Shown here one piece after another: positions 3,073 to 48,418 of a stretch of DNA of 48,418 nt. The notes under the pieces were generated by a model. The model was not told the origin of the DNA, searched no databases, and saw nothing but the letters and a program-made list of their open reading frames with translations. The position numbers were made by a program, and so were the translations under genes. Each line of letters opens with the position of its first letter. The stretch's first letter is position 1. Location of the stretch: the NCBI GenBank assembly GCA_049322295.1, contig JBMORO010000052.1, positions 1 through 48,418 of the forward strand, given 5' to 3'. The DNA comes from Patescibacteria group bacterium (GTDB lineage Bacteria > Patescibacteriota > Minisyncoccia > RBG-13-40-8-A).

Positions 3073-5319
3073 CTATTGGGGCAAAGAATTAATAAATTTT
3101 TCAGCTTCATCTTTAAACGATGGGTCAATCTCGGCTGCTTTTAAAGCCATCTCCCTTGCCTTATCATAATTCCCTACCTTGGCATAAGCCGCGGCTAAAG
3201 AAGCATAAAATTGAGGATTTTGGGGTTGCTCTTCAATAGCTAAAAGATAATATCCTATAATTTTTTGGTAATTGCCAACTTTCTCATAAATATTTACTAA
3301 GCGCATTAAATCAGAAATACTATTTTTATAATCATAGCCTATTTCTATGGCTTTCTCCACATTAGTAACGGCCTCTTCATAATGTCCTAGGTAATAGGCG
3401 CTCACTCCCAGAAACCAATAAGAAATCATTACTTTGGGGTTAAGCTCCAGGGCCTTTTTAAAAGTTTGATATGACTCCTGATATTTTTTCTCAGAAAACT
3501 GAGCCTGGCCTAATTCATACCAGATTCGGGGATTTTTTTTATTAAGCTCTAGGGCCTTCCCAATAAAGGATTCTGCCTGGTCGCCAGCTCCTGCCTCTTT
3601 ATCTATTAATAGAATATACATTCTTCCCACATAAAGATAAGGGATGGTATCTTGGGGGTATTTTTCTATATTTTTCTCCACCTCATTAATCGCATAATAA
3701 AGCAAGGCTGGGTCAAAATCTTTGTTTTTTTGACGCTGAGATTCGGTAACTTGAATAGCAAAAGTGGCTAATTTATGTCTAATTTCATAACTACCCTGGG
3801 GAGTTTTGTAATTAAGGGCTTCTCGATATTTATTAAATGCCTGTTGGGCATTACCATCTCGACCAGCTATAATTGCTCGGGTACAAGCAAAATTAGCTCG
3901 AGCTGGTTTGATATTGGTCTGATAGGCGATAATGACAGCTATAGTTAATAATATAATAGTTAAAAAAATTGAAGGCCTCATTTCCTCTTGCTTATTTTTT
4001 TCCGCGTTTATCTGCGTAGCCATCTGCGTGTTTTCGCTTCTACCCAAATAATTAATGTAACCCAGAACCAAAAAGAACATAAAATAATTAGCAAAAGTAT
4101 CAAAAATAAAAAGATTCTGACCAATATAAGCAATTAACATTGCTGATAACACCCCGAAAGTCGCTTGATCTATTTTTTTTTCTTTAAATTTTTTAATAAG
4201 CAAATAGAAAATGATAATAAAAATAGATAAATAACTTAGAAGCCCTATCATTCCTTCTGTAGATAACATTTCCAAAATAATGTTATGGGCTCTGTCCCAG
4301 ATTGTCTCTGCCCCTAAGCCGGTAAAGTGACGTGGATCAAAATATTTCATATGCAAAAACATAAAATTTTCCGGTCCCCAACCAAATATCGGTTTTTCTT
4401 TCCATCCCAAAATAGCGCTTTTCCAAGACCATAATCTGGTCTGGACGGTTGAAGTATCTTTGGAAATATCAGTAATTCTACTTAACCAACCAATGTTTTT
4501 TATCCACCCTTGATTTCTATTTAGCCAGATTCCTATAGCTAGAATTATAAAAATTAATATAGCGATTGATAGATAAATTTTTGCTTTCCGATTTTTTGAA
4601 GCAAAAACAAAAAATAGAGTCAAAAGAAAAACAGAACCGAAAAGAGAAAGAACTGCCCCTCGAACTGCAGTCATCAATATCGCTGGAATACCCAAAATAA
4701 TTACTGCGACAAAAAATCCCTTTTGCCAGATGGCTGTATCGTTTTTTAACAAAAATAAAAGAGCCAAATAAATAATAAATAAAAGATAACCAGCAAAAAG
4801 AGCGGGATTACCAATAGTGCCAATAACTCTCTCGCCATGCTGCCAACCAACAAAAAAATCTCCCAGACGCAAGCGTTGACCATAAGCAAATAAAATTGAA
4901 AGAAAACCAACAAAAACTGATATTTTCAAAATTTTGTTCCAATCTTCCCTAACTCTAATAATGCTGGTCAAGATAAGAAAATAAACCCAAAAATGTAAGA
5001 AACTAAAAATACCACCCATTCGCTCTAGCGAACCCCACCAACTGTTATAAAAATTAACCCCGATAAGCCCAGTTAAAAAATAAAGACCAGTAAAAATAGA
5101 AAAGCTGATTAAAATTAAACTCCATTTTGGTCGATAATCCCTATTAATTAAAATTAAAAGAATATAAAAAACCGCCATTAATTCCACTAAAGTTCTAAAA
5201 ACAATCATCTTTCCAAAGTGAAATGGCGATAAATATTGGGAGAAAATAACCAAAGGCAAAAACAGGGAAATAAAAATTCCCCAACGAAGAATTTTTACAT
5301 AGGTATCTGAGGCATTCAT
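3073..5319 (-). CDS. O-antigen ligase/polymerase-like polytopic membrane protein fused to a C-terminal TPR domain
   Basis: The N-terminal part has many TM helices and a GTIGNPALFAGYLLF segment typical of Wzy_C/O-antigen ligase families. The C-terminal ~270 aa carries repeated TPR-like A..Y..AL.L.P motifs, for example FKKALELNPKVMISYWFLGVSAYYLGHYEEA and YASLAAAYAKVGNYDKAREMALKAAEIDP. The track start at 5367 is a TTG. I prefer the ATG at 5319 (MNASDTYVKILRWG) because a consensus promoter lies at 5332-5361. Confidence 0.75.
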   Translation of the reverse strand: MNASDTYVKILRWGIFISLFLPLVIFSQYLSPFHFGKMIVFRTLVELMAVFYILLILINRDYRPKWSLILISFSIFTGLYFLTGLIGVNFYNSWWGSLERMGGIFSFLHFWVYFLILTSIIRVREDWNKILKISVFVGFLSILFAYGQRLRLGDFFVGWQHGERVIGTIGNPALFAGYLLFIIYLALLFLLKNDTAIWQKGFFVAVIILGIPAILMTAVRGAVLSLFGSVFLLTLFFVFASKNRKAKIYLSIAILIFIILAIGIWLNRNQGWIKNIGWLSRITDISKDTSTVQTRLWSWKSAILGWKEKPIFGWGPENFMFLHMKYFDPRHFTGLGAETIWDRAHNIILEMLSTEGMIGLLSYLSIFIIIFYLLIKKFKEKKIDQATFGVLSAMLIAYIGQNLFIFDTFANYFMFFLVLGYINYLGRSENTQMATQINAEKNKQEEMRPSIFLTIILLTIAVIIAYQTNIKPARANFACTRAIIAGRDGNAQQAFNKYREALNYKTPQGSYEIRHKLATFAIQVTESQRQKNKDFDPALLYYAINEVEKNIEKYPQDTIPYLYVGRMYILLIDKEAGAGDQAESFIGKALELNKKNPRIWYELGQAQFSEKKYQESYQTFKKALELNPKVMISYWFLGVSAYYLGHYEEAVTNVEKAIEIGYDYKNSISDLMRLVNIYEKVGNYQKIIGYYLLAIEEQPQNPQFYASLAAAYAKVGNYDKAREMALKAAEIDPSFKDEAEKFINSLPQ
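4000..4041 (-). repeat. 42-nt in-frame element, copy a (encodes RSENTQMATQINAE)
   Basis: On the minus strand it reads agaagcgaaaacacgcagatggctacgcagataaacgcggaa. It is 32/42 identical to the copy at 46943-46984. It lies between the membrane domain and a further TM helix. Confidence 0.7.
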
Positions 5320-5331
5320 TACTATACTATT

Positions 5332-5361
5332 ATTATAATTTACCTCAAAATCTATTGTCAA
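5332..5361 (-). promoter_or_regulatory. Sigma70-type promoter, TTGACA-N18-TATAAT (consensus boxes), for the O-antigen-ligase-like gene
   Basis: On the minus strand TTGACA lies at 5361-5356, followed by an 18-nt spacer and TATAAT at 5337-5332. The ATG at 5319 lies 12 nt beyond the -10 box. Confidence 0.6.
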
Positions 5362-5383
5362 TTGCAATAAATTGAGATAGAAT
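5355..5383 (+). promoter_or_regulatory. Divergent sigma70-type promoter, TTGTCA-N17-TAGAAT, for the 5407-13029 operon
   Basis: TTGTCA lies at 5355-5360, followed by a 17-nt spacer and TAGAAT at 5378-5383. Its -35 box overlaps the -35 of the minus-strand promoter on the same TTGTCAA sequence. Confidence 0.5.
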
Positions 5384-37551: not shown

Positions 37552-38459
37552 AGGCCTTGTTTTTTAATAATTAACCAAAAAGAAGAACCACTCCTAGGAA
37601 ATAGATTTGAAAATAATTTATCTAAATACCTCAAAAAGAAATTTTTAGAAGAGTCAATTTTGCCAAGATGATTGTATGTTCTAAGTAATAATAACTTAGA
37701 AGTGGGGAAGTATTCTTTTTTTATTAGAAGGGGGTCGAATCCAGCCTCTTTATTTATTTTGGATGAAACAGTGGGAGACCAGATATCTACCAATGCCTGA
37801 ATTTCTTGGTCGTTTAATTTTTGTCCCGATTTGATTATTCCTTCCTTTACTAGTTGTTCATTGATCTCATCAGTTAAGACAATTTTTTGATTTTGTATAG
37901 ATTTTTTAAATTTACTTAATTTAACAGAAAAATAACTCAGGAGACGAAATATAAAGACCAGTAAGAAATTTTTAAAAAATTTTCTATTTGGTTCATGGGC
38001 TATACAAATTATTCCTTCTGATTTCAATAGTCGATTGGCTTCCTCTAAAAACTTATGATAGCCGGGCAAATGATGCAAAACTGAATTAACTGTTATCAAA
38101 TCAATGGAAGTATTGGCTAAAAATGGCATTTCTTCGCAGTCTGTTTCAACAAATTCAAATTGACAAGAAAATTTTTTTAATTTTTCTTTCGCTATCATTA
38201 ACATCTTAAGAGAAATGTCGGCACAAATAACTTTATCTTGGGGAGTTAAATATTGAGCCAAGATAGCAGGTACAAAACCAGTTCCGCTGCCTACATCTAA
38301 GACGGTTATTGGTCGTGATAAGTGTTCTAAATATCTCTGACAAAAATTTTTCCAATTGTCCCCCTCTCTTAATATCTCTAAATGTTGCTGGTCATAAAAA
38401 TTAGCTTCCTCATTATGAAAAATCTTATTGAATTTTTTAACTATCTCGTTATTTACCAT
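37548..38459 (-). CDS. Class I SAM-dependent methyltransferase
   Basis: Motif I is VLDVGSGTGF. IDLITVNSVLHHL and LKSEGIICIAHEPN are also present. Confidence 0.8.
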   Translation of the reverse strand: MVNNEIVKKFNKIFHNEEANFYDQQHLEILREGDNWKNFCQRYLEHLSRPITVLDVGSGTGFVPAILAQYLTPQDKVICADISLKMLMIAKEKLKKFSCQFEFVETDCEEMPFLANTSIDLITVNSVLHHLPGYHKFLEEANRLLKSEGIICIAHEPNRKFFKNFLLVFIFRLLSYFSVKLSKFKKSIQNQKIVLTDEINEQLVKEGIIKSGQKLNDQEIQALVDIWSPTVSSKINKEAGFDPLLIKKEYFPTSKLLLLRTYNHLGKIDSSKNFFLRYLDKLFSNLFPRSGSSFWLIIKKQGL

Positions 38460-39556
38460 AATACCTGTTTATAAATCTCAAGATACTTCTCAACCACATT
38501 GTCCCACCTCATCTCCTGGGCTCTTTTTTTACCACCTTCACCCAATCTTCTTAACAATGCATCATTATTAAGTAATTTTAAAACTGCCTCAGCTGTTTTT
38601 TGAGTGTCTCTTTGAGGAACAAGTAATCCTGTTACATTATTTATAATAGCATCTTCAGCTCCACAATCATAGGTTCCAATCACTGGCTTTCCGCAAGCTC
38701 CTGCCTCTAAATACACTAGACCAAAACCCTCAAAATCATTATTGTTAATAGTAATTGGAGTTAATAAAAATATATCCGCCCAATAATAAAGCTCAATTAA
38801 ATCTTCGTCTGATATGTTCTGGAAGAATTTAACATTCATTTCTAATTTATATTTTTTAATTAAATCCGAATAAAATTCTGAGGGGTGTCCTCCTACTATC
38901 CAATATTTTATATTTTTGTATTTCTTTTTAACTTCGGCTATTGCGGGTATAGAAATATGATAGCCCTTGCGCAGTTTTAACGCTCCAACGCTTAAAATAA
39001 CTTTCGCATCTGCGTCTTTCTGCGTTTTAATCCGCGTTAATCTGCTTCTATTAAATTTATCATAATTAACTCCGTGATTTATCACTATTGTGTTATCTAA
39101 CTTTACTCTTTTCAAAATCTGTTTTTCAGTAAATCTACTAATACATATTATCCTATCTGCTCTTTTATAAGCCCAACTCATTAGACCTTTTTTTAGGGGA
39201 ATATCAAGAGGCAGGATTGAATAAGTGCCAATTCCATTAATAATCAATTTTTTATTTAAACCAATATTGGCTAAAGCAGCAATTACCCCATAGGGATAGC
39301 CGTCTAAGGCATGAACTATGTCACATTTTTTAATGTATTTCCGAATTTTAAAAGCATTTACAAAAATATTATGAAAATGCCGCATAAGATAGGACTTGCG
39401 GAGGACGGCTCTCTCTAATTTATGTCCACTTTCCTGCTCGGTCAAAACTATTGCTTCGATGCCTTCTTTCTTTGAAATATTTTCTACCACGTCCCTACCA
39501 AATCTTCCTACCCCTGCTTTTATATCCAAATTTTCATTTAAAAAACAAATTTTCAT
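38453..39556 (-). CDS. GT4 glycosyltransferase
   Basis: The C-terminal domain carries FGLVYLEAGACGKPVIGTYDCGAEDAIINNVTGLLV. The inter-domain linker contains the 42-nt element. Confidence 0.8.
   Translation of the reverse strand: MKICFLNENLDIKAGVGRFGRDVVENISKKEGIEAIVLTEQESGHKLERAVLRKSYLMRHFHNIFVNAFKIRKYIKKCDIVHALDGYPYGVIAALANIGLNKKLIINGIGTYSILPLDIPLKKGLMSWAYKRADRIICISRFTEKQILKRVKLDNTIVINHGVNYDKFNRSRLTRIKTQKDADAKVILSVGALKLRKGYHISIPAIAEVKKKYKNIKYWIVGGHPSEFYSDLIKKYKLEMNVKFFQNISDEDLIELYYWADIFLLTPITINNNDFEGFGLVYLEAGACGKPVIGTYDCGAEDAIINNVTGLLVPQRDTQKTAEAVLKLLNNDALLRRLGEGGKKRAQEMRWDNVVEKYLEIYKQVLW
39008..39049 (-). repeat. 42-nt in-frame element, copy b (encodes RSRLTRIKTQKDAD)
   Basis: On the minus strand it reads agaagcagattaacgcggattaaaacgcagaaagacgcagat. 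It is 34/42 identical to the copy at 46943-46984. The two share the 16-mer tctgcgtctttctgcg (39009-39024 and 46944-46959). Confidence 0.75.
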
Positions 39557-44933: not shown

Positions 44934-46355
44934 TCATTTTTTTATATACCTTAACCCTGTCTTAATTAATGATTTTAAGTCTCCGATTGATCTAACCTTT
45001 CTAAGTTTCCTAAATCCCTTCTTCAAAATCCCTCCTCTTGTGCCTAATTCTTTTGTCATAATAGCTTTAATTTTTTCTATTTCCTTGCCGGGCCATTCCA
45101 TTAAAAATAGAGAGGGGTCATCGCCAGTAATTTTATATTTCTCTGACTGATAAGGACTATTCCAAGAAAAATCCAAAGGCATAATACCTTGCTTTTTTGC
45201 CATAAGCTCTAATTCTGTGCCAGGATAAATTACCGTAAATCCATAAGCAGGATAAGAATTTCTAATTTCTCGAAGCTCTTTCATTAAATTTATAGTCATT
45301 TTCAGGTCTTCCATTGTTTCTTCGGGCAAATTGACCATAAAATTAGTCACTACCGCCATCCCAACTTTAGAAGAAAGTCGGACAGCTTCTTTTGCTTGTT
45401 CAACGGTTATGTTTTTTTTAATAACTTTTAAAATTTTCGGACTACCCGATTCTATCCCATAACTTATTCTAATACAATTAGCTTTTCTCATTAATTTAAG
45501 AAGGTCTTCATTGACAGTATTAACTCTTGCTCTGGCATACCAAACAATATCGAGTTTTCTTTTTAGAATTTCTTCGCAAACCCCCCTTACATGATCGTGA
45601 ACCAATGTCATCGTATCATCCCAAAAATCAAATCCTTCATATCCATATTCTTTGTGCAAAAATTCAACTTCATCAACAAAATTTTTAGGACTTCTTAATC
45701 TTAAAACTGTCCTGGCATTAGCACAATAAACACAAACATTGGGACAGCCCCGACCACTTAACACGCCAACTGCCCTAATATTAGTACCATCAATAGGTCG
45801 AGTGTACTGTTTCAAATCAAATAGATGCCAAGCTGGCATTGGTAACTCATCAAGATTCATTATCAAATCAGTTAAAGGCTTCTCTATAATTTTGCCACTC
45901 TGTCCTCTGTAAGCCAAACCCGAAACTTTATCAATATCGCCTTTTTCCTCCAAAGTATTCAGAAATTGAACAACTGCTTTTTCACCCTCCCCCCTGATTA
46001 TAAAATCTATTTCCGACACAATCTCTAAGGCATTTTTGGTTGTTAAAGAAAAATGCGGTCCGCCAAATAGGGTAATAATCTTGGGGTTATTTTTCTTTAA
46101 TTCTTTAGCCAGGGCAATAGCTTTGAATCTATTATCAGTAATGGAATGGATTCCTACTACATCTGGATTTTTATTTAAAATTCTCTTAGCTGCCTCAGAA
46201 GGACTAAAACCATAAGTATGAGCATCAAAAATTTCAACTTGATGATGACTAAATTTTTCTATATAAGCGGCAATATAACCAATGCCCAAAAAGGGCAAAC
46301 CTTTTCGCTCAAGGTCTCCTTCCGCCCGAGGACTGGTTGTTAATACAATTTTCAT
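44934..46355 (-). CDS. B12-binding-domain radical SAM enzyme (class B), paralog 7
   Basis: LGIGYIAAYI, FGGPHFSL, IRGEGEKAV and NLDELPMPAWHL are present. The cluster motif is GRGCPNVCVYC. Confidence 0.85.
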   Translation of the reverse strand: MKIVLTTSPRAEGDLERKGLPFLGIGYIAAYIEKFSHHQVEIFDAHTYGFSPSEAAKRILNKNPDVVGIHSITDNRFKAIALAKELKKNNPKIITLFGGPHFSLTTKNALEIVSEIDFIIRGEGEKAVVQFLNTLEEKGDIDKVSGLAYRGQSGKIIEKPLTDLIMNLDELPMPAWHLFDLKQYTRPIDGTNIRAVGVLSGRGCPNVCVYCANARTVLRLRSPKNFVDEVEFLHKEYGYEGFDFWDDTMTLVHDHVRGVCEEILKRKLDIVWYARARVNTVNEDLLKLMRKANCIRISYGIESGSPKILKVIKKNITVEQAKEAVRLSSKVGMAVVTNFMVNLPEETMEDLKMTINLMKELREIRNSYPAYGFTVIYPGTELELMAKKQGIMPLDFSWNSPYQSEKYKITGDDPSLFLMEWPGKEIEKIKAIMTKELGTRGGILKKGFRKLRKVRSIGDLKSLIKTGLRYIKK

Positions 46356-47509
46356 TTAAATAACTTTATAAATTTATTAACAATTTTATCCAAAGAATAT
46401 TCTTTAACTTTCTCTAATTCTTCTTTTCTAAAGCTATTATATAATTCTTTGTCCGAAAGCAATGTTTCTATCTTATGGGCGAACATCTCAATATCGCCCG
46501 GCTTGACTAAAAATCTCTGGGCAGTCTCTGGGGAAATTTCTCGCACTGCCCCCACGTCAGAAGCAATATAGGGAATACCCATGGCCATTGCTTCTAATAA
46601 AACCCGTGGAAAACCCTCTTCCATTGACGGCATAATAAATAAATCAGCTTTGGCGTAATATTCGACAAGGTCTTTATTTGGCACAGCCCCCACAACTATA
46701 ATAAAGTTTTTTAATTTATTTTTCTCAATTTCTTCTAATAATTTTTCTTTATACGGCCCGTCACCGATAACCATTAAATTTAAATTTTTATTAGGTGGGA
46801 TGGCTCCGGGCCTTTTAAATTTTAAATTATTCATAATTGGAACAATCATATCAGCGCCCTTTCTTTTTGATAACCAGTGAACAAACAATAAAACCTTCGG
46901 TTTCGCTGATTTACGCTGATGACTACGCGAATCAACGCTGAATTCTGCGTCTTTCTGCGCTGCTATCTGCGTTCTTCTGCTTCTACTAAATCTGTTTAGA
47001 TTTATCCAATTTGGCATTATTTTTATCTTTTGGGGGCTCAAATTGTAGTGTTCGCTATATCCTTGTTTCATAATTTTACTGCCGGTTACTAAATAATGGG
47101 ATAATTTCAAACTCAATTTATAACCAAGACCAGGCAATGTTCTTTGCTTAAATAACCAATTCATTGCGCAATTCCAGTAATATGATTTTCCTCCAAATAT
47201 CCTAGAAATAATTCCAGCATTAATTGCCCCAATATAACAAATATGGGTGTAAAAAATTCTGTATCCTAAAAATCTGGCTTTTAAAAGTGCAAAAAAACTT
47301 TCTAAAAATCTGAAGGGAATAAATCTAAACTTTTGGATATAAAACTTGTTTGTTAATTCTACATTATTGGTGTCTGATTTCTCTATTATTAAAAATATAT
47401 CTAAATGTTTAGATAATTCTCTTAAAAATTCGTAGTGATGATAAAAATGACCAGCAGTATTTTCGCTATATTCTGGCAGAATATAACAAATTTTTGTACG
47501 CTTCCGCAT
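46352..47509 (-). CDS. GT4 glycosyltransferase
   Basis: The C-terminal domain carries FPRVLLEAMAMGIPYIASDVGAVREI. The track start at 47590 would overlap the upstream gene by 125 nt. The ATG at 47509 (MRKRTKICYILPEY) gives a 44-nt overlap and a typical GT4 N-terminus. The linker carries the 42-nt element plus a 49-nt extension. Confidence 0.75.
   Translation of the reverse strand: MRKRTKICYILPEYSENTAGHFYHHYEFLRELSKHLDIFLIIEKSDTNNVELTNKFYIQKFRFIPFRFLESFFALLKARFLGYRIFYTHICYIGAINAGIISRIFGGKSYYWNCAMNWLFKQRTLPGLGYKLSLKLSHYLVTGSKIMKQGYSEHYNLSPQKIKIMPNWINLNRFSRSRRTQIAAQKDAEFSVDSRSHQRKSAKPKVLLFVHWLSKRKGADMIVPIMNNLKFKRPGAIPPNKNLNLMVIGDGPYKEKLLEEIEKNKLKNFIIVVGAVPNKDLVEYYAKADLFIMPSMEEGFPRVLLEAMAMGIPYIASDVGAVREISPETAQRFLVKPGDIEMFAHKIETLLSDKELYNSFRKEELEKVKEYSLDKIVNKFIKLFK
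46943..46984 (-). repeat. 42-nt in-frame element, copy c (encodes RSRRTQIAAQKDAE), followed by a CGCTGA-rich extension (46894-46942, FSVDSRSHQRKSAKPK)
   Basis: On the minus strand it reads agaagcagaagaacgcagatagcagcgcagaaagacgcagaa. It lies in the same reading frame as copies a and b. Confidence 0.75.
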
Positions 47510-48418
47510 AATTTTTAATTGCTTTTTTTCTCTCAAATTGCTGGACTGTATTATAGCCATTTTCAGCAATTCTTCTACGTAAATTTTCATCTTTTAATAA
47601 ATCTAAAATCTTCTCAGTGATATCATCATTATCCCAATCAATAAATATCCCGTTAGCTTGCCCCGAGCTCCTCGAAGGGTCTTTGATTACGTCTATCATT
47701 GCTCCAACTCTAGTTGTAATTACTGGTAATTTACAAGCCATCGCCTCTAAGCAAACTCTCGGACCTCCCTCATTAAAAGATGGCATTACAAAAATCTTTG
47801 ACTGATTATAGATTCTTGCCACATCTTCTATGCTCGGCAACCAGCCGGCAAATTCTACATTATCCTGTAATCTATTTTTCGCAATATATTTTTCTATTTT
47901 AGGTTTTAATGGTCCGTCGCCAATAATTATAAATTTGAAATTTGGGGTTTGGGATTTAAGTTTTTTTGTTGCTTTAAGCAACAAGTCGATTCCTTTGTTT
48001 TTAACCAATCTCCCAGAAAACACTAAATCGTATTTTTTCTCAAGATTTTGGGGCTTGAATATTTCTAAATCAATATAAAAGGCAGGAATATATTTTATTT
48101 TTTTTTCATCAACCCCTGACTGTTTTAGAAACTCGGGGACTTGGTTTTGATTAATTACCCGGACTGCCCTAGCTTTTTTGGCAAAATATTTTATAAATAA
48201 CCTAGCTAAAATTTTATAAAACCATTCTTTAAAACTTCCTGCCCTCGGATAGCCAGTAATATGCATTACTTCTAAAATATAGGGTATCTCTAAATAAAGA
48301 TTATTCTCAGGAGAGACCCTTCGCAGCCCGAGCGGGCACGGTTCCCGCCTCTGGCGGGAGAGCGAGGGCGAGACGGAGCGCGACGCCTCGTTGGGGCGTC
48401 GACGCGTGTCGAAACGAG
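47466..48418 (-). CDS. GT4 glycosyltransferase, probably 5'-partial (frame stays open to the right edge of the window)
   Basis: The C-terminal domain carries GGPRVCLEAMACKLPVITTRVGAMIDVIKD[PSRSSGQA]NGIFIDW. The track starts at the ATG at 48266 (MHITGYP), which would remove the whole N-terminal Rossmann domain. My translation upstream stays open: ...RREPCPLGLRRVSPENNLYLEIPYILEVMHITGYP. The real start is therefore probably outside the window. Confidence 0.6.
   Translation of the reverse strand, partial: RFDTRRRPNEASRSVSPSLSRQRREPCPLGLRRVSPENNLYLEIPYILEVMHITGYPRAGSFKEWFYKILARLFIKYFAKKARAVRVINQNQVPEFLKQSGVDEKKIKYIPAFYIDLEIFKPQNLEKKYDLVFSGRLVKNKGIDLLLKATKKLKSQTPNFKFIIIGDGPLKPKIEKYIAKNRLQDNVEFAGWLPSIEDVARIYNQSKIFVMPSFNEGGPRVCLEAMACKLPVITTRVGAMIDVIKDPSRSSGQANGIFIDWDNDDITEKILDLLKDENLRRRIAENGYNTVQQFERKKAIKNYAEAYKNLLYSARI
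47655..47678 (-). repeat. 24-nt GC-rich in-frame insertion (PSRSSGQA) splitting the conserved D-x-NG motif of the GT4
   Basis: On the minus strand it reads ccttcgaggagctcggggcaagct. The adjoining agacccttcg (reverse complement of 47673-47682) recurs in direct form at 48314-48323. Confidence 0.6.
48310..48418. repeat. GC-rich, multi-hairpin element at the right edge of the window
   Basis: G+C rises abruptly to roughly 70%. Hairpins are cccgcc-tct-ggcggg (48344-48358) and gacgcc-tcgttgg-ggcgtc (48382-48400), with ctcgtt/aacgag closing a larger stem. The element is in frame with the GT4 gene. The window ends inside it. Confidence 0.6.

Follow-up and report, generated by a model that had tools for sequence, protein, structure and literature searches.

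Three repeat copies in genes of the window

The DNA analysed here is a contig of 48,418 nucleotides from a Patescibacteria group bacterium (JBMORO010000052.1 of assembly GCA_049322295.1; only one other contig of the source organism, L001, is on record), and this whole stretch is referred to below as the window. The subject of this report is a short repeat with four units of the form (A)CGCRGA, found three times on the minus strand within protein-coding genes, together with the family of elements to which it belongs. The copies (a, b and c) and their host genes, the latter identified from Pfam domains, are as follows.

3073..5367, minus strand: host of copy a, an O-antigen-ligase-like membrane protein with Wzy_C (222-380) and C-terminal TPR repeats
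4000..4042, minus strand: copy a, solo left arm (profile match by nhmmer, E 5.8e-9), not followed by inverted units
38453..39556, minus strand: host of copy b, a glycosyltransferase of family 4 (GT4)
39008..39050, minus strand: copy b, solo left arm (profile match, E 6.6e-12)
46352..47590, minus strand: host of copy c, a GT4 glycosyltransferase
46943..46985, minus strand: copy c, left arm (profile match, E 2.5e-8)
46900..46942, minus strand: copy c, right (inverted) arm (E 3.7e-5 on the plus strand, 46908-46942)

An initial annotation, made from the letters of the window, had reported three minus-strand copies of a 42-nt element built from heptamers. The copies are present where it placed them, and each has four GCRGA cores at offsets 5, 15, 27 and 37 (a spacing of 10/12/10 nt), usually preceded by AC; the 42-mer, rather than being the element, is one terminal arm, and the conserved start of that arm, TAGAAGC (at 4042, 39050 and 46985), lies one base outside it. 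Copy a reads TAGAAGCGAA-AAC-ACGCAGA-TGGCT-ACGCAGA-TAA-ACGCGGA, while the left arm of copy c has GCAGA units at 46980, 46970, 46958 and 46948. Ungapped identities are 32/42 (a-c), 34/42 (b-c) and 28/42 (a-b), and copies b and c have the exact 16-mer CGCAGAAAGACGCAGA in common; the two values against copy c and the 16-mer agree with those first reported.

Pattern matches were compared with dinucleotide-preserving shuffles (n = 100) and were found not to be due to chance. A degenerate 41-mer matched the window twice (0.00 expected; 0/100 shuffles reached 2), and GCRGA-N5-GCRGA matched five times, always within the three copies (0.13 expected; 0/100 shuffles reached 5). Clusters of two or more CGC[AGT]GA-type units were found at the three copy sites only. 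An arm profile built from 121 independent metagenomic left arms had only four matches in the window, namely b, a, c-left and c-right. Local enrichment in G+C was also borne out (0.43-0.50 in the copies, 0.336 across the window).

All three copies are translated in the frame RS..TQ..TQ..A(E/D), giving (G)RSENTQMATQINAE (copy a, residues 443-456 of the Wzy_C/TPR protein), (N)RSRLTRIKTQKDAD (copy b, residues 170-183 of its GT4) and (S)RSRRTQIAAQKDAE (left arm of copy c). In most window copies only two forward frames are stop-free; the +1 frame always contains a stop, and the reverse frames are hydrophobic and rich in Cys.

The CGCTGA-rich 49 nt that had been described as an extension of copy c is present, but is an inverted right arm and no mere extension. 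Its units (TCAGCG, TTCGCG, TCAGCG and TCAGCG at 46941-36, 46931-26, 46919-14 and 46909-04) have the 10/12/10 spacing of the left arm and encode FSVDSRSHQRKSAK. As the four inverted units directly follow the left arm, 46985-46900 is an 86-nt imperfect palindrome, the 3' boundary of which is uncertain by about 6 nt (AAACCGAAG is common to copy c and locus L012). A hairpin of -28.3 kcal/mol (z -3.05) was predicted for it as RNA, and one of -14.2 kcal/mol (z = -2.62) as DNA. The right arms of copy c and L012 have TCAGCG units in place of TCYGCG; Gln codons thereby replace Leu codons, which may reflect selection for hydrophilic in-frame inserts. No inverted partner arm adjoins copies a and b in the window sequence, and they therefore form no hairpin.

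With regard to position, copy b sits exactly between Glyco_transf_4 (15-166) and Glycos_transf_1 (175-345). Copies b and c occupy homologous sites between the two Rossmann-type halves of paralogous GT4s (28% identity), with a conserved …(K/R)F motif directly N-terminal and the …(V/I)LxVG / LFVHW strand C-terminal to them; copy a is downstream of Wzy_C, in a hydrophilic loop between transmembrane segments. The view that the three positions are unrelated thus holds for the gene of copy a and not for b and c, and the description of all three as inter-domain linkers holds for b and c and not for a. The copy c insert corresponds to residues 175-204 of the 385-aa database form of its GT4, which begins at Met28 (~47509), 27 codons inside the longest open reading frame (ORF). 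In the AlphaFold model of this protein the mean predicted local distance difference test score (pLDDT) is 85.9 overall, and falls to 55 (residues 181-190) and 44 (191-200) in the insert, compared with 84 for residues 201-210.

A family of palindromic elements beyond the window

Further copies were found in number outside the window. At least 119 genomic loci match a three-unit pattern, in Nostocales and other Cyanobacteria, many Patescibacteria, Omnitrophota, Gemmataceae, Bacteroidota, Verrucomicrobiota and others; among the matches listed a fourth unit, not demanded by the pattern, is present in nearly all, and an inverted arm in many. At least 120 further metagenomic loci match a subfamily pattern with the window-type TAGAAGCRGA terminus, and in the 121 metagenomic arms the unforced fourth unit is 88-97% conserved. 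In total, more than 240 public loci share this architecture. Complete short forms measure 84-145 nt and have the perfect termini TAGAAGCRGA…TCYGCTTCTA. Core units are conserved across phyla while spacers vary. All six reading frames are used across the loci, and the common frame of the window copies, correctly noted at the outset, is therefore no rule of the family.

A longer central arm spacer often holds a nested small G+C-rich hairpin (L044:671-722, L106:7526-7563, L117:4346-4403 and L123:809-864), and this spacer seems to be a secondary insertion hot spot.

Rfam searches of the window (at the gathering threshold, and by E-value near copy c) and of 23 loci gave no family at the elements. 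Viral contigs gave only six pattern matches, none with the four-unit architecture, and carriage by phages is accordingly not supported. Among the 25 most frequent Pfam families listed for 136 ORFs within 700 nt of elements (families with a single ORF being mostly unlisted) there was no transposase, and hence no enrichment. Loci L087 and L045 were considered as transposon-like pairs and rejected, each being a single long palindrome between convergent genes. Searches of the literature by sequence strings and by topic returned nothing that describes the arms or ties GxxExxY proteins to them, and the family appears to be undescribed as such.

The long form and its GxxExxY gene

In five metagenomic loci (L157, L171, L211, L233 and L238) the same arms enclose a single ORF of 131-140 amino acids, giving long forms of 482-544 nt. 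The encoded protein belongs to TIGR04256 GxxExxY (E 7e-29 to 2e-31, 100-109 bits against a cutoff of 35) and to PF13366 PDDEXK_3 (104-120 bits against a cutoff of 22). The PD…(D/E)xK motif is present; E35, D74 and K86 show no variation and E84 almost none. The NCBI description of TIGR04256 may mention rRNA intervening sequences. A local profile search recovered 26 GxxExxY ORFs in the retrieved loci, and the link between arms and ORF was seen also in Nostoc (L120, with arms TTAAACGCAGAGG… and …CCTTTGCGTTAA), Omnitrophota (L065) and Verrucomicrobiota (L078). A single-sequence AlphaFold model of the nuclease (pLDDT 54) was unusable for a fold search.

At L238 copies of 487 nt and 220 nt with the same arms lie side by side, and at L136 all of the ORF but its start is gone; judged by their sequences, both would be deletion intermediates. 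Divergent GxxExxY genes are flanked by arms of other repeated units (TGCTGAT, CCGCGAA and ACAAAT/ATACGT; L185:183-596 and 3440-3898, L203:3488-3934, L087:2300-2900), which suggests a wider superfamily of nuclease-plus-modular-arm elements; in L185 and L203 the arms thus vary together with the nuclease.

Taken together, the three repeats of the window are probably the ORF-less remnants of a small selfish element with two inverted four-unit arms, the complete form of which is about 480-540 nt long and carries a GxxExxY gene.

Residence in proteins, structural RNAs and intergenic DNA

Cyanobacterial and Bacteroidota copies are mostly intergenic, for example between convergent genes. In Patescibacteria, in-frame copies were found in UvrB, PPDK (pyruvate-phosphate dikinase), Mfd, PGK and three class I tRNA synthetases, and EF-G of two metagenome-assembled genomes carries an in-frame element in the same loop. 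LepA of two Saccharibacteria contains the whole nuclease domain, in frame, inside its GTPase domain; one of the loci with this long-element LepA also has a group II intron domain match (L036:7847-7925; RF01998, 36 bits).

Structural RNA genes are likewise occupied. A Wolfebacteria 23S rRNA gene (L044:1-2482) has three copies, one of them in the helix 45 loop, the classical site of intervening sequences (IVSs). The 3' part of another 23S gene (L051:1-1322) has four arm arrays, namely three solo arms and one full palindrome, and one more palindrome lies between the 23S and 5S genes of that locus. A Saccharibacteria RNase P RNA (L070:6755-7393) holds three copies and thereby reaches 639 nt, against 367 model positions; RNase P RNA elements occupy the positions of native peripheral hairpins. 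In RNase P RNA and in some 23S rRNA copies one strand folds more stably through G-U pairs. A bias towards the RNA strand was considered on this account and rejected, since the better-folding strand is not always the one that is transcribed (L044).

Many intergenic metagenomic copies stop 4-12 nt short of an ATG start codon. In a Sungiibacteria ribosomal-protein operon (L088:1111-3209) two near-identical arms, with about 30 nt of common upstream sequence, stand just before two start codons, and by eye the N-termini of the genes that follow resemble ribosomal proteins L22 (rplV) and L29 (rpmC).

Comparison of orthologs

The nearest orthologs of the copy c GT4 (75-77% identity) have unrelated linkers of 12-14 aa, compared with 30 aa in the window protein; in the DNA, conserved flanks can be made out on both sides of a wholly different intervening sequence. 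A more distant ortholog (P0030) carries a related palindromic element at the same spot, and in P0015 (64% identity) the linker that holds copy c in the window is occupied by the long form, as arm, PDDEXK_3 and arm in frame between NWINLKRF and KVILFVHWLSKRKG.

Other sequences were also observed in this linker. Ortholog P0003 (L121:1463-2512) has a tandem of (AAACTCA), about 4.5x, which encodes KLKTQNSKLKT in place of the element, and the linker therefore takes up repeat DNA of other kinds too. Orthologs P0005, P0007, P0008, P0012, P0018 and P0079 have another common linker peptide, (S/Q)QPKAGPPRAE (alignment A2), which may be the footprint of another repeat family.

The copy b linker is hypervariable (120 orthologs), and most orthologs carry no element. 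An arm with boundaries identical to those of copy b was found in a few (e.g. P0122 and P0138), and further orthologs have the same DNA units in another frame (AEQRGYQRR…, ADKRRF…); carriers of the arm are not one another's nearest relatives. Divergence of the element between copy b and its orthologs is about equal to that of the adjoining coding sequence. The loop of copy a is variable as well, and scattered orthologs have solo arms or full palindromes at the same place, such as P0328, with a full palindrome (…TQIATQKNADDFCVDPRINQRKSAS) ending TCTGCTTCTA.

The segment is consequently not carried by all orthologs: the element is inserted rather than ancestral, being absent from the nearest orthologs of copy c and patchy among those of b and a. 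The initial proposal of a small intragenic DNA repeat family, tolerated as linker peptides, is supported by this comparison and by the further copies.

Setting of the host genes in the window

The region from 36.6 to 47.6 kb looks like a glycan-synthesis cluster by annotation, with several GT4 genes, a GT2, a methyltransferase and an asparagine-synthase-like gene. The longest ORF of the copy c GT4 overlaps an upstream ORF (47466-48266, minus strand) by 125 nt, an overlap which the Met28 start removes. Cumulative GC skew declines steadily over the window (1-48418), and beyond about 18.8 kb almost every ORF of at least 100 aa is on the minus strand.

Proposed history and alternative explanations

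The family is a discrete element that occurs in ORF-bearing, hairpin and solo-arm forms, resides in permissive sites of proteins and RNAs, and is missing from the nearest orthologs. A history that would account for the window copies begins with entry of the element into permissive loops of the three genes. A deletion between the arms would then have removed the nuclease gene and left the 86-nt hairpin form, as in copy c, and further decay or replacement would have given solo left arms, as in copies a and b. Only in-frame, stop-free inserts encoding hydrophilic surface-loop peptides would have survived, and the copies would therefore be read through as linker peptides. We infer both the loss of the ORF by deletion between arms and the selection for in-frame, stop-free, hydrophilic insertions. 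The putative GxxExxY nuclease may recognise the units and drive the spread, either through break repair as in homing or through excision and insertion at the palindrome, and the window copies are now probably inert passengers.

A number of points weigh against this origin. Both the nuclease activity of GxxExxY and its binding to the units are predictions from sequence. Similarity to T7 endonuclease I is sub-threshold (Pfam E 8e-4, below the cutoff; E 0.34 in a PDB sequence search, where it was the sole match). The ORFs of classical 23S IVSs are not known to mobilise those elements (PMC4990558). The local profile search gave no GxxExxY match in the window, so the window copies are ORF-less derivatives. 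No target-site duplication was seen in ortholog DNA, in complete elements or at RNA-gene insertion points; no direct repeat flanks about 25 complete elements, where a TA duplication would be indistinguishable from the TA at both termini. The loops with copies a and b are hardly longer than those of orthologs, and replacement of an old loop is therefore as likely as pure insertion. Finally, the boundaries of copy-b-type arms coincide in non-sister orthologs (P0121, P0122 and P0138), which could reflect recombination or gene conversion rather than transposition.

The last of these points belong to an alternative in which patches are replaced by gene conversion, ectopic recombination or template switching with no enzyme encoded by the element. 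The replaced loops of a and b, the shared boundaries, the RNase P RNA elements at sites of native peripheral hairpins and the lack of a detected target-site duplication would all fit such a process; however, it needs flanking homology, which is not common to GT4, Wzy_C, EF-G, UvrB and rRNA, and the discrete perfect termini (TAGAAGC…GCTTCTA), the ORF-bearing long forms, which are hallmarks of a defined element, and the occurrence of the same element in distant phyla make it improbable. It is about equally unlikely that the arms are kept for a function in the host or its transcripts, be it an RNase III stem, a hairpin for translational pausing or mRNA stability, or a series of sites bound by a host protein. 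Such a role would explain why core units are conserved across phyla while spacers vary, why copy c folds better than shuffled sequence (z -3.05), why RNase P RNA and 23S copies are more stable on one strand through G-U pairs, and why intergenic copies so often end 4-12 nt before a start codon, and the stems of classical IVSs are indeed RNase III substrates (PMC4990558). On the other hand, copies a and b have no partner arm and hence no hairpin, the more stable strand in L044 is not consistently the transcribed one, the nearest orthologs manage without the element, the copy b element diverges about as fast as its flanks, and the host genes are functionally unrelated.

Mobilisation as repetitive extragenic palindromes (REPs) of the GTAG-tagged type, by a REP-associated tyrosine transposase (RAYT) or IS200-like enzyme, is very unlikely. 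Copies a and c do start with GTAG, and in other bacteria REPs are known within genes for repair proteins and tRNA synthetases (PMC3733652), which recalls the UvrB, Mfd and tRNA-synthetase hosts found here. The arm, however, is made of four direct units and not of a self-complementary stem-loop of 20-40 bp, the tag is NTAG (the first base being G in about 4/10 subfamily copies), the 25 families listed as most frequent in the 136 neighbouring ORFs include neither a Y1 (HUH) nor another transposase, and the ORF enclosed by the arms encodes a PD-(D/E)XK nuclease. Least credible of all, to the point of being nearly negligible, is an ancestral linker of paralogous GT4 genes or an artefact of chance or codon bias: BLASTP aligns the peptides of b and c, which are at homologous GT4 positions, but the segment is 81% identical at the DNA level compared with 28% protein identity for the whole genes, copy a is in an unrelated gene, 0/100 shuffles gave such matches, the nearest orthologs are without the segment, and hundreds of copies exist in unrelated contexts.

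Beyond the origin of the window copies from a nuclease-bearing element, a broader proposal may be put forward more tentatively, and we would rate it as somewhat less than an even chance. GxxExxY (PDDEXK_3) might be the nuclease of an undescribed class of small mobile elements with modular four-unit inverted arms, which would colonise rRNA, RNase P RNA, intergenic DNA and, in frame, essential genes (LepA, EF-G, UvrB, tRNA synthetases) in at least four phyla and decay to hairpins and solo-arm loop peptides. Such elements would be 'non-splicing inteins' of the IVS type and a source of expansion segments in proteins and RNAs of the candidate phyla radiation (CPR).

The family offers a testable link between a widespread nuclease family of unknown function and insertions in CPR genes and RNAs. 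A 2024 survey of CPR rRNA insertions recorded numerous uncharacterised insertions that are short and have no ORF, in part at known IVS sites, and did not analyse them further (PMC11270868), and the family provides a concrete origin for these, as well as for many odd hydrophilic inserts in CPR housekeeping proteins. It does the same for the GxxExxY/PDDEXK_3 proteins, a large and widely transferred family still annotated as being of unknown function; the function of PF13366 is listed as unknown, with multiple horizontal transfers (PMC3424549). On a practical level, the arms break assemblies and swell the count of 'hypothetical' ORFs, and they can lead to errors when marker genes (EF-G, LepA, tRNA synthetases and 23S rRNA) are aligned or used for phylogenies.

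Comparison with known systems

Three features characterise a GxxExxY-associated palindromic element, and the window copies display them to different degrees. Four units and the TAGAAGCRGA terminus were found in a, b and c-left, and a hairpin with a partner arm in copy c only; an enclosed GxxExxY ORF was found in L157, L171, L211, L233, L238, L065, L120 and P0015, and in none of the window copies.

Identity with self-splicing introns or inteins was rejected, as neither a ribozyme nor an intein domain surrounds the nuclease gene: no intron ribozyme was detected at the elements by Rfam, and Pfam showed PDDEXK_3 only, with no intein domain, in the inserts. The insert appears to be read through and not spliced. 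As with homing endonucleases, a selfish nuclease gene lies within conserved genes and rRNA of CPR bacteria (PMC11270868), and ORF-bearing and ORF-less forms are found at one and the same site. Miniature inverted-repeat transposable elements provide a parallel in that ORF-less derivatives share terminal inverted repeats with a longer coding element, the putative deletion intermediates being L238 and L136; here, however, the parent has no recognised transposase of an insertion sequence family, only a nuclease of 131-140 aa, and a target-site duplication was not found. Like the present elements, GTAG/CGTC REPs are small and palindromic, and some lie within repair and tRNA-synthetase genes (PMC3733652); some of the present copies also start with GTAG. 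The present arms, in contrast, are not self-palindromic, no RAYT is associated with them among the 25 most frequent neighbour families listed, and the protein is of a different superfamily.

The analogy with Rickettsia palindromic elements (RPEs) drawn in the initial annotation holds, in that both are palindromic repeats lying in frame within ORFs. RPEs (Ogata 2000/2002, as summarised in PMC10969869 and PMC3733652) occupy genes that are unrelated and in many cases essential, in a genome that is small and densely coding, and give short hydrophilic peptides that are tolerated in loops. They measure 100-150 bp and have a conserved peptide, with no autonomous form or enzyme known, whereas the present family has modular arms, several frames and an ORF-bearing parent, in other bacteria and with another sequence. 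RPE-1 to RPE-10 are therefore likened to it by architecture, as an analogy; the unit architecture and the host phylum differ. Here there is a candidate enzyme, as there is not for the RPEs, and this makes the mechanism directly testable.

The closest known kind is the 23S rRNA IVS. That of Coxiella burnetii is a 428-nt selfish element in helix 45 with an ORF and a stem of terminal inverted repeats, the 5' part of which has AGAAGA followed by GACAGAT heptamer repeats (PMC4990558). The IVS ORF encodes a four-helix-bundle S23p/23S_rRNA_IVP protein and the present one a PD-(D/E)XK GxxExxY protein; the four units at 10/12/10 spacing also set the present arms apart, and the family extends to RNase P RNA, intergenic DNA and in-frame sites in protein genes, where excision by RNase III cannot rescue the host. 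The window copies themselves are in protein-coding genes and not in helix 25 or 45, with relatives in the helix-45 loop (L044) and elsewhere in 23S (L051). Both kinds nevertheless have a long stem formed by terminal inverted repeats, short direct repeats in the 5' arm, an ORF-bearing form of about 430-540 nt alongside short ORF-less hairpin forms, a patchy distribution as of a horizontally moving element and, in the Wolfebacteria 23S rRNA gene, the same helix-45 loop as a place of residence.

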